From assembly GCA_041644975.1 (NCBI GenBank), contig JBAZQX010000007.1, positions 1,906 through 65,905 of the forward strand: a DNA stretch of 64,000 nt, given 5' to 3'. A program made the translations under genes and the position numbers. The stretch's first letter is position 1. Each line of letters starts with the position of its first letter. Of the stretch, positions 23,090 through 25,743 are shown one piece after another. The stretch comes from Candidatus Doudnabacteria bacterium. GTDB taxonomy: Bacteria; Patescibacteriota; JAQUNI01. Under the pieces are notes generated by a model. That model ran no database searches and was not told the origin of the DNA. It was given only the letters and a program-made list of their open reading frames with translations.

Positions 23090-23477
23090 GTTTATAAAAT
23101 TAAACACTCTGTCGCGCTCTCGCACGACCTCCTTGTGTCAAGCTTTCGCTTGACCTCCTTAATTCATTTCAAAATTCTTTGCTGTTATTATAACTAAAAA
23201 AGACCCTTTAAACAAGGTTCTTTTTTTATCCGCAAAGGAGCTTTCCTTTGGCAATTAAACAGTGATAGGAAACATCTTAGAATTTAAAACACATTTTGTT
23301 TTAAAACGCCGTGTTTTAAGTTAACCACTACCGTGTGGCTTTTTTAGCGTTTGTTTGATAACAGTATCCCTTGCGAGATACCGCGACAATATTTTTCTCC
23401 CTAGAAAGGAGGTGATCCATCGACAGCTTCCGCTACCGATGCCTTGTTACGACTTCGTCCTAATTACCGATCCTACC

Positions 23478-23945
23478 GTGGATCCACCAAAAGGCGGAAC
23501 TTCGGGTATTACCGGCTCTTCTGACGTGACGGGCGATTATCTTCTTATAAACGTAAGAATTGATGTTCCCACCCAGCGAGCGGATTTCCCGCACTAGGCG
23601 AGTTCTAATGCATTTTCTTCTTCATTAGAATGGCTCCTTTCCCCATACTCGGGGTATTATGAGCCAGCTGACTTCTGACGCTGCGTTAGTTTTATTATAT
23701 AACTCGATTGAGTTAAACCGCAACATCAGATCTCCCGGGGTCAGTTTAAAAACTTTTCCTAACATCCCAAAGAAGCTTTTATATAATTTTCCCTATGCTC
23801 ACCACCCTACCATAGGTCAATTAACTTCTTTAATTTTTGGGCTGCTATTTGTTTCCGGATCCTCTGCTAACATCCTCGCGGATGTTAACTATCCTTCAAC
23901 TACGCTCTAAACGAGATTAGAGGGACGGATTTTAACCGTCTGGTT
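23478..23945 (-). other. ~430-470-nt insertion in the 16S rRNA between the GTAC(A)C 1395 block and the CGCCCGTCA 1400 block
   Basis: The conserved blocks are ~490 nt apart here versus fewer than 100 in canonical 16S. No sense-strand ORF of 60 aa or more. Confidence 0.6.
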
Positions 23946-24954
23946 TTTAAACCTGCCCGGCGCAGATTTTGTGAGTACAAGACCTGGGAACGTATTCACC
24001 GCGACATGGCTGATTCGCGGTTACTAGCGATTCCGGCTTCATGAGGTCGAGTTGCAGACCTCAATCCGAACTGGGGGTGCTTTTGATGGGATTAGCTATA
24101 GCGTTACCGCGTCGCGTCCCATTGTTACACCCATTGTAGCACGTGTGTCGCCCAGGGCATCAAAGGCCATGCTGACTTGACGTCGTCCCCACCTTCCTCC
24201 GACTATCTGCCGGCAGTCTCGCGTGACATAGTAACACGCGACAGGGGTTGCGTTCATTCCCGGACTTAACCGAACATCTCACGACATGAACTGACGACAG
24301 CCATGCAGCACCTGATCCCAAGGTTCCCCCCATAAAAAATCCAATTTTTAATTTTAAATTTTTAATTGAATTCCTTATGGGGGCACATCTCAGTTTCCTA
24401 AGATCTCCTTGAGCGTCTTGCCCTGGTAAGGTTCCTCGCTTACCGTCGAATTAAACCACATGCTCCACCGCTTGTGCAGGTCCCCGTCTATTCCTTTGAG
24501 TTTTAGCCTTGCGGCCGTACTTCCCAGGCGGGGCACTTAACGCGTTAGCTTACGACACTGAAGGGGTCGAGCCTCCAATGCCTAGTGCCCATCGTTTACA
24601 GCGTGGACTACTGGGATATCTAACCCCATTCGCTCCCCACGCTTTCGTCCTATGAGCGTCAGAATCGTTCTAGTAAGCTGCCTTCGCTATTGGTGTTCCT
24701 GCCGATATTAACGCATATCACTACTACACCGGCAGTTCCGCTTACTTCTCCCGACCTCTAGTCTTGAAAGTATCCAACCCTTTCCCTTGGTTAAGCCAAG
24801 GTCTTTAAGGTTAGACTTTTCAGACCGCCTAGGGACGCTTTACGCCCAATAAATCCGGATAACGCTTGGACCACTCGAATTACCGCGACTGCTGGCACGA
24901 GTTTAGTCGGTCCTTATTCGTAGGGTACCTTCAAACGTGCCTCGCTACCGCTCG

Positions 24955-25200
24955 GCACTAAATATAAATTTACAATTTTTAATTTTAAATTTTAATTCAA
25001 ATCCAAATTTTAAAATTGATTAAAAATTTCCGCCTGAAGAGCGGATCGGCTCTTCGACTCTGAAGACTCATTAGAGTTCGTTCAGAGCCTGAACAACCTA
25101 AACGACCTAGGGCTGAAAAAATTTAGAATTAAAAATTTACAGAGTGCTGAACGTAAGTGAAGCACGTCTTATTCCCCTATAAAAGCAGTTTACACTGAAG
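24955..25200 (-). other. ~240-nt AT-rich insertion in the 16S rRNA between the 357 and 515 conserved blocks (V3 region)
   Basis: Spacing of ~400 nt versus ~160 nt in canonical 16S. Confidence 0.5.
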
Positions 25201-25743
25201 AACAGCTTCTTCCTGCACGCGGCGTCGCTCCTTCACCCTTTTGGGGCATTGAGGAAGATTCTCGACTGCAGCCTCCCGTAGGAGTCAGGGCAGTGTTTCA
25301 GTCCCCGTGTGCGAGGGCATCCTCTTAGACCTCGTAACCGTCATAGCCTTGGTGAGCCTTTACCCCACCAACTAGCTGATAGTCCGCAGGCCCTTCTTGA
25401 AGCGATAAATCATTTACCATAACTAATGAATAGCTATGGCACATCGGGAATTAGTCCGCCTTTCGGCGAATTATGCCCGTCTTCAAGGTAGGTTACCAAC
25501 GTGTTACTCACCCGTTTGCCACTGTCCGCCTAACTTTTCTTGCGAAAAGTTTGGCGGACCGTTGACTTGCATGCCTTATCCACGCCGCCAGCGTTCATCC
25601 TGAGCTAGGATCAAACTCTCAAAAAAGATAATCAGCAATTAGCTCATAAAAGCTAGATTACTAATTATATAAATAGACGTTCCTATCACTATTTAATTGT
25701 CAAAGTTCAAAAATATTTTTGCTCTTAAACTAGAGCATAATTT

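Follow-up and report, generated by a model that had tools for sequence, protein, structure and literature searches.

A candidate phyla radiation 16S rRNA gene with a group II intron at position 1400 and two hairpin insertions at helix tips

The 16S rRNA locus

The DNA analysed here is a 64-kb stretch (64,000 nt, hereafter the window) of contig JBAZQX010000007.1 from a Candidatus Doudnabacteria bacterium. The source contig, ENA ERZ27249422 k141_699790 (77.9 kb), agrees with it at 100% identity across the 21 kb compared around the 16S gene, and the protein encoded beside that gene is identical to NCBI MFA4880720.1, named Candidatus Doudnabacteria bacterium. On the minus strand of the window lies a 16S rRNA gene of 2222 nt, which shrinks to ~1503 nt once all three of its insertions are removed (Table 1). 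We read it, with a probability of about 0.8, as the gene of a candidate phyla radiation (CPR) bacterium that carries three unrelated insertions: a group II intron between C1399 and C1400 (E. coli numbering), and two hairpins at helix tips that would be excised as intervening sequences.

The Rfam model SSU_rRNA_bacteria (RF00177) matches the gene with 1233 bits. Its positions 1385-1533 are squeezed into 23919-23980, with the match made to stop at 23919. The sequence that really constitutes the 3' minor domain (CGCCCGUCAC; AUCGCCCGUCAC...AAGUCGUAACAAGG...GGAUCACCUCCUU) is located ~440 nt further along, at 23405-23537; the model thus ends too early, and the gene spans 23405-25626. The original prediction had come within a few nucleotides of both ends (23404-25621) and left the minus strand unstated. 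All universal 16S blocks are intact. Alignment with E. coli rrsH and with syntenic relatives resolves the extra length into three discrete blocks between collinear conserved segments rather than a diffuse expansion of variable regions, which bears out the predicted enlargement to ~2.2 kb by three insertions. The sizes foreseen for them (~240, ~55 and ~450 nt) also agree with those observed, namely a 245-nt hairpin with a net gain of ~231 nt (insertion 1), a 57-nt hairpin with a net gain of 53 nt (insertion 2) and 435 nt (insertion 3). None of the three contains a sense-strand open reading frame (ORF) of 60 aa or more, as an ORF check confirmed.

Table 1. Features of the interrupted 16S rRNA gene in the window, and members of the conserved-stem hairpin family in other loci (coordinates of the respective locus; rc, reverse complement; h, 16S rRNA helix).
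Feature	Coordinates	Strand	Remarks
16S rRNA gene with three insertions	23405-25626	minus	RF00177 match, E. coli rrsH alignment; 3' minor domain located separately
Insertion 1, hairpin	24924-25168	minus	replaces the h17 tip (E. coli ~455-477)
Insertion 2, AU-rich hairpin (~20 bp)	24327-24383	minus	sits where the E. coli 1025-1036 hairpin has its UUCG loop
Insertion 3, ORF-less group II (IIC-like) intron	23536-23970	minus	between GUACUCAC (ends C1399) and CGCCCGUCA (starts C1400)
Intron-binding site 1 (IBS1) CUCAC, last five nt of the 5' exon, E. coli 1395-1399	23971-23975	minus	complementary to exon-binding site 1 (EBS1) GUGAG
A-rich 5' terminal linker AAAAUC in place of G1	23965-23970	minus	
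UGCG, remnant of GUGYG, after the 5' linker	23961-23964	minus	
Domain I	23735-23960	minus	basal helix CCGGG (23956-23960) with CCCGG (23735-23739)
Domain I hairpin bearing EBS1	23792-23816	minus	EBS1 GUGAG at 23798-23802, last five loop nt
Domain II (GAGAUCUGAUGUUGC...GCAGCGUCAGAAGUC)	23670-23734	minus	covarying helix, columns 336-350/388-401; within the RF01998 match
Domain III	23632-23665	minus	preceded by the J2/3 linker AGC
Domain IV, 29-nt hairpin	23603-23631	minus	mini-ORF ATG AAG AAG AAA ATG CAT TAG (23605-23625)
Domain V, 35 nt	23568-23602	minus	five covarying lower-helix pairs, other pairs invariant
Domain VI	23539-23564	minus	followed by the 3' tail AAU (23536-23538)
3' exon, h44-h45 and anti-Shine-Dalgarno end	23405-23535	minus	separate model match at 23418-23537
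tRNA-Ala(UGC), downstream of 16S	22819-22892	minus	
Stem-family member L038 (Azambacteria)	1475-1665		h17, ~160 nt
Stem-family member L186	rc 205-351		h17, 147 nt
Stem-family member L184/L205	L184 3038-3627		h17, 579 nt
Stem-family member L219	rc 8235-8409		h9, 175 nt
Stem-family member L190	rc 764-892		h6, 129 nt

The intron in the decoding centre

Insertion 3 occupies the junction of helices h28 and h44 in the decoding centre, and excising exactly 23536-23970 restores the universal GUACNCACCGCCCGUCA. The sole Rfam signal within it is to group-II-D1D4-1 (RF01998; 26.8 bits at 23634-23706, E = 0.006). Homology and covariation at the sequence level show it to be an ORF-less, IIC-like group II intron belonging to the LAGLIDADG-associated family of CPR 16S position 1400. 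A group I intron was considered for this site and rejected; RF00028 gives no match even at E <= 10, and the insertion follows a C and ends in U. The original prediction had suggested self-splicing introns or excised intervening sequences for all three insertions, to be checked against the Rfam intron models. The intron half of this suggestion stands for insertion 3, for which the models return the sub-threshold RF01998 match. RF00028 is found in none of the three, and insertions 1 and 2 fall into no known class of intron.

Homologues were collected with two pattern scans covering a genome and a metagenome collection, and 125 matches were examined. The first pattern, AGAANTCAGC N{110,140} CGCCCGTCA, was run on the genome collection and proved loose: most of its 120 matches are chance hits in unrelated genomes, five are true CPR homologues and a sixth (L016) was added later. 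The genome-collection homologues belong to Taylor-, Azam-, Andersen-, Specht-, Uhr- and Nomurabacteria. The second pattern, which joins domain V to the 3' exon, yielded at least 120 matches in the metagenome collection. Altogether more than 100 homologues of insertion 3 were retrieved, and more than 100 independent contigs have an intron at this site. A complete intron at 16S 1396-1399 is present in 75 sequences (74 loci and the window's own), whose lengths are bimodal, clustering at ~400-480 nt and ~780-950 nt with few between. Removal of one segment rebuilds GTAC[A/T]CACCGCCCGTCA in 75/75. The junction follows position 1399 in 37 of them, including the window, position 1398 in 33 and position 1396 in three (L132, L143 and L182), and is ambiguous in two; two Uhr/Andersenbacteria copies (L047, L079) place it after 1397.

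The family folds into the six domains of a group II intron with covariation support, and D6 folds family-wide. For 13 ORF-less members, RNAalifold returns 105 base pairs, 75 of them with compensatory changes, which cover the domain I branches, D2, D3, D4 and a 35-nt D5. The basal helix of domain I (C[CU]NGG/CCN[AG]G) is missed by the program; it is fully paired in 56/66 members, through 13 complementary combinations. Domain V of the window intron has the features of a catalytic group II hairpin, typically ~34 nt long with an AGC or CGC triad near its base. It starts with UCGCC, carries the CGC triad (C-G, G.U, C-G) near the base of its lower helix and a 2-nt bulge (UC) in the 3' strand, and is topped by the upper helix GCGG/CCGC with the loop GAAAU. 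Every position that is invariant in the 13-member alignment is present in the window intron, and all helices are intact. Its 3' end, AU, fits the group II 3' AY. Three relatives (L212, L035 and L144) pass the curated RF01998 cut-off with 38-40 bits.

Complementarity to the exon is also preserved. EBS1 consists of the last five loop nucleotides of a domain I hairpin, which pair with the last five nucleotides of the 5' exon in nearly all members where it was located. The register of EBS1 moves with the junction, as seen in the loop/exon-end combinations ..GGUGAG/CUCAC, CGGUGAGU/ACUCA, CGGUGUGU/ACACA and UGUGUAC/GUACA, and EBS1 changes from A to U where exon base 1396 changes from U to A. Since the loop covaries with both the junction register and the A/U difference at 1396, the loop/exon pairing is EBS1-IBS1, and this pairing sets the 5' splice site of the window intron directly after C1399, upstream of the A-rich stretch. 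The stretch that takes the place of G1 measures 6-10 nt in the family. Bases 5' of EBS1 remain complementary to the start of the 3' exon across junction types. Homologous introns of the 1400 region thus use four adjacent junctions (1396-1399), with the EBS1 loop moved by an equal number of nucleotides. The apparent explanation is intron sliding or re-targeting within a 4-nt window.

The nearest introns are those of L168 and L141 (77-79% identical) and of L212 and L125 (67-68%), counting shared parts only. All four are 860-870 nt long and contain in domain IV an ORF of 141-142 aa with one LAGLIDADG motif (Pfam LAGLIDADG_1, E ~1e-18). This ORF begins at an ATG homologous to that of the window and ends in ...KQKMH before the stop. 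The mini-ORF in domain IV of the window intron is the start codon of its relatives fused in frame to their final codons (...K M H stop), a comparison that shows the homing-endonuclease gene to have been deleted in frame. Other ORF-less members (L183, L144 and L184) carry different scars, which indicates that the endonuclease gene has been lost repeatedly.

Insertions at position 1400 of CPR 16S genes were first seen by Brown et al. 2015, as cited in PMC11270868. Group-II-like insertions in these genes have been reported only at this position, under the name '16IS9'; 39/53 have a LAGLIDADG homing endonuclease (LHE) and 14/53 are ORF-less (Tsurumaki et al. 2024, PMC11270868). The window intron and its relatives resemble 16IS9 in their CPR host, in the site, in the group II D1-D4 Rfam signature and in having a LAGLIDADG_1 ORF in most members next to an ORF-less minority. 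The published classes rest on Rfam hits, however, and the sub-cut-off window copy would probably be listed there as 'uncharacterised'. Beyond this Rfam-based classing, the domain structure, the EBS1-IBS1 pairing, the exact junctions (1396/1397/1398/1399) and the ORF-deletion scar are worked out here.

A further relative is the rns-1396 family of Thiotrichaceae (giant sulfur bacteria), which has a IIC backbone, a single-motif LHE in DIV, no exon-binding site 2 (EBS2) and a single-A DIV-DV linker (Liu et al. 2026, PMC13190283; also Salman et al. 2012, as cited there). In all rns-1396 members a 5' terminal linker separates the exon from the conserved 5' motif; Liu et al. connect such linkers with a lost branch adenosine and with splicing that may be hydrolytic (PMC13190283). 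The 5' linker of the window intron therefore departs from the general GUGYG consensus yet matches this sub-family, since every rns-1396 member has one. The likeness extends to the IIC-type backbone, the CGC triad, the single-A DIV-DV linker and the stretch of 16S that is targeted, and in relatives of the window intron domain IV harbours a LAGLIDADG gene of the single-motif type. Site 1396 itself is used by three CPR contigs. The window intron differs in its host, a CPR bacterium and not a gammaproteobacterium, in its junction, 3 nt downstream at 1399/1400, in its deleted ORF, and in the D6 of its subgroup, which has no bulged adenosine. CPR members were not reported by Liu et al. (PMC13190283).

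Group I introns of CPR rRNA and tRNA genes occur in the same genomes, in tRNA-Phe of the window and near the 16S 3' end of relatives. The three 16S insertions of the window differ from them in having no RF00028 match, no U before the 5' splice site and no terminal G. The tRNA-Phe(GAA) gene (10903-11231, minus strand) is split between U33 and G34 by a 264-nt group I intron (Rfam match 10944-11209) and was missed by both ARAGORN and the Rfam tRNA model until the intron was removed in silico. A group I intron at Phe GAA 33/34 is listed for Patescibacteria (PMC13011429, Table 1). Among the relatives, L246 has a group I intron near E. coli 1500 (9693-9942; RF00028, 78 bits), where the window has no insertion, and L249 carries at the same site a 767-nt insertion (~9534-10301) with no Rfam match. 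Insertion content varies gene by gene even between relatives.

The helix-tip hairpins

Insertions 1 and 2 are hairpins with stems of 23 and 20 bp, respectively, and both are much more stably folded than their shuffled counterparts (z = -8.1 and z = -5.5). The basal stem of insertion 1 is formed by 25143-25168 as the 5' strand and 24924-24949 as the 3' strand; its basal ~25 bp pair GACGUGCUUCACUUACGUUCAGCACU with AGUGCCGAGCGGUAGCGAGGCACGUU. The arms of this hairpin are AU-rich and contain AAAAUUN heptamers, and the centre is more GC-rich. The GC content of the insertions, 26-35%, is unlike that of the remaining rRNA. A 33-nt segment is common to insertions 1 and 2 (30/33 identical), with a score reached by 1/2000 dinucleotide shuffles. 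Rfam assigns insertion 1 to no family at E <= 10 and the region with insertion 2 to none at E <= 1. An archaeal bulge-helix-bulge intron was rejected on inspection, with no 3-4-3 bulge-helix-bulge at the exon-intron junctions or in the stem of insertion 1.

The order H+-PPase, trigger factor, LysM/M23, KhpA, TrmD, DUF4349, 16S, tRNA is common to three syntenic loci, one of them on a 707-kb scaffold. Their 16S genes are ~83% identical to that of the window and contain an endonuclease-bearing 1400 intron and, close to the 3' end, a further group I intron, which Rfam confirms in L246. Neither hairpin is present in these relatives, whose h17 tip (GAAGG-CUUG-CCUUC) is plain, as is their GCC-UUC-GGG loop. 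Because relatives at 83% identity lack them, both hairpins are recent replacements of terminal loops and specific to the lineage.

The stem of insertion 1 recurs in other CPR genes. Its signature, GUGCYUCACU.../...AGCGAGGCAC with a fixed A.C mismatch, was searched as both boxes plus flanking complementarity, and the non-CPR loci returned by the loose intron pattern were reused as a negative control. In 0.84 Mb of CPR loci the signature gives 10 raw matches, equivalent to seven distinct insertions, and in 0.86 Mb of control loci it gives none. One of the seven, in L182, is a false positive whose 3' box is the conserved 16S 1070 region. Other AU-rich string matches in other loci are partly low-complexity and were accepted only with the conserved stem. 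The 12-bp core of the stem is paired in 6/6 members, with compensatory changes at 5/12 pairs; in slid controls only 32-60% of cells are paired. The A.C mismatch keeps its position in 5/6 members, and most differences between the arms are G.U-compatible, a pattern that speaks for selection acting on an RNA helix. Apart from the heptamer repeats, the interiors show no relationship. On these sequence comparisons the group looks like an intervening-sequence family. No description of it was found in the literature searched, and of all the elements treated here only this family, with six members, might be new.

A dispersed repeat of ~100-120 nt is also present in the window, with copies 93-96% identical at 36414-36536, 48754-48877, 55860-55957 and 63577-63690 and a partial copy at 45411-45445. 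It has several hairpins; one copy was checked and lies between genes. Within the repeat, CCGAGCGGAAGCGAGG agrees at 16/17 positions with the insertion 1 stem (3' strand), a similarity at chance level (BLAST E ~0.7).

The closest known counterparts are the rRNA intervening sequences processed by RNase III, which occupy 23S helices 25 and 45 in Salmonella, Leptospira, Coxiella and others, with rare 16S cases. Both hairpins resemble them in replacing a loop with a long stem-loop, in a duplex of ~20 bp or more and in having no ORF, and a single-copy rRNA host is counted as a further likeness. Insertion 1 alone also shares their sporadic distribution, conserved lower stem and variable interior. The differences are the location in 16S (h17 and the 1030 hairpin, with related elements in h6 and h9) and a very AU-rich composition with heptamer repeats. 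RNase III intervening sequences are absent from mature rRNA, which is fragmented at the site, a fate that is predicted for the window hairpins. Intervening-sequence-like elements have been suggested for CPR bacteria, without characterisation (PMC11270868).

Processing, alternative explanations and implications

The intron of insertion 3 is expected to splice itself, a prediction indirectly supported by the exact restoration of the universal exon sequence in all 75 members. The ribozyme would cut after C1399 and ligate this end to C1400; its first step is probably hydrolysis, with release of a linear intron, as suggested by the A-rich linker in place of G1 and by a domain VI without a bulged adenosine. 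Having lost its endonuclease gene, the intron is presumably immobile and should still splice. Classical rRNA intervening sequences are removed without ligation, and the same would hold for both hairpins, with the insertion 1 stem as a putative processing signal, most likely for RNase III. Excision of the hairpins is favoured over their retention on the arguments set out below.

Several observations weigh against this picture. The canonical 5' GUGYG is replaced by AAAAUC followed by UGCG, with no G1. Domain VI of the window intron (AUC-AA-UUCUUA...UAAGAA-GAU, then AAU) has no unpaired nucleotide in its 3' strand and lacks the branch A that would bulge out 7-8 nt before the 3' end; such a bulge, at -8, is found in sister subgroups but not in that of the window. 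The RF01998 score falls below the gathering cut-off (26.8 vs 35 bits), RF00029 (D5-D6) matches no intron-family member tested, and in place of a mobility protein domain IV of the window holds only the scar MKKKMH, the endonuclease and possible maturase being gone. For the hairpins, no homologue of insertion 2 was found among ~100 CPR 16S loci. No RNase III gene was found by a signature-motif search of the 64-kb window, a result that is uninformative, as the window is a small part of the genome. The lost ORF, the missing GUGYG and branch A and the sub-threshold score would also suit a decayed relic that is removed by host nucleases, leaving the 16S split into 1-1399 and 1400-1542 and held together by base pairing. 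We regard such a relic as improbable, since the positions invariant among the 13 members and the helices are all retained and EBS1 still matches the exon. Relatives whose endonuclease genes are intact have the same 5' linker and D6, an architecture that is therefore presumably functional, and the other ORF-less members keep the same core. Less credible still is an assembly artefact or a pseudogene. Metagenomic 16S regions do often misassemble, and a contig from an independent run, identical to the window up to that point, breaks at the first bases of the 16S gene. Against this stand the intact universal blocks, the intron at the same site in more than 100 independent contigs, and the order TrmD, DUF4349, 16S with 1400 intron and tRNA in three other assemblies, including the 707-kb scaffold.

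The fate of the hairpins is more finely balanced. A serious rival, whose chances we put somewhat short of even, is that the mature 16S keeps both insertions and exposes them on the small-subunit surface as expansion segments specific to the lineage. Extra RNA is structurally tolerated at peripheral 30S helix tips; both hairpins lie at the solvent-exposed terminal loops of peripheral helices, and the conserved stem of insertion 1 could just as well bind a protein. Excision is preferred because near-perfect duplexes of ~20-25 bp are the type of substrate cut by RNase III, because the sporadic distribution and the use of the same stem at three helices resemble classical intervening sequences, and because a GC content of 26-35% sets the insertions apart from the rest of the rRNA. 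CPR rRNA insertions have also been stated to be removed from transcripts (PMC11270868, citing Brown et al. 2015). The recurrence of the same ends at three rRNA helices in different lineages, with variable interiors, would in turn suit DNA palindromes resembling miniature inverted-repeat transposable elements (MITEs) that landed in rRNA helix tips, the stem then being a terminal inverted repeat. The 33-nt AU-rich module common to insertions 1 and 2 and the intergenic repeat with its 16/17 match could be read in the same way. We think this origin unlikely. The arm differences are mostly transitions that keep G.U or A.C pairing in RNA, with the A.C fixed in 5/6 members, no copy lies outside rRNA genes among the ~0.84 Mb of CPR loci, and no transposase is associated. 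A wider proposal, to which we give a little less than even odds, is that insertion 1 represents an undescribed, ORF-less, RNA-level family of helix-tip elements with a ~25-bp stem, spread over at least h6, h9 and h17 in different phylum-level CPR lineages, and that the AU-rich module common to insertions 1 and 2 was copied between helix tips within one gene; a separate part of the proposal is that the 1400 introns slid over 1396-1399, their exon-binding loop changing register each time.

Downstream of the 16S gene the window continues with tRNA-Ala(UGC). The 510-nt spacer after the 16S yielded no tRNA-Ile, although one is usual there, and no 23S gene was found anywhere within the 64 kb, which indicates that 16S and 23S are not linked in this genome region. 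CPR bacteria usually have a single copy of the 16S gene (PMC11270868), and the one described here is probably the only 16S gene of the cell.

The consequences for detection are immediate. The intron splits the target of 1391R/1392R/1406R, as the original prediction had said for 1391R; its remark on primers is half right, since the 1492R target is contiguous, with mismatches confined to the distal end, toward the 5' end of the primer (AAGTCGTAACAAGGCATCG), and this primer would at most give a 2.2-kb product. The 515F target has one mismatch (GTGCCAGCAGTCGCGGTAA). Primers spanning 1390-1407 cannot amplify this 16S, a full-length product measures 2.2 kb, and standard rRNA callers cut the gene short at the intron, as Rfam did here. 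Primer failure and caller truncation together imply that such lineages are under-counted and their 16S genes mis-annotated. The original prediction also held that features of this kind are known from CPR bacteria, and indeed CPR 16S insertions, a group II intron at 1400 and the failure of primers are an already published phenomenon (PMC11270868 for the group-II-like insertions).

For the organism, a ribozyme one nucleotide from C1400 means that ribosome production would depend on accurate splicing by an intron with neither a protein partner nor a branch site, and the window intron offers a compact, naturally occurring system in which to test group II splicing by hydrolysis. The ORF-deletion scar and the joint shifts of junction and EBS1 illustrate the cycle of gain, degeneration and loss of homing-endonuclease introns. 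If confirmed, the conserved-stem family would give the intervening sequences of CPR rRNA a recognisable signature and a candidate processing signal.

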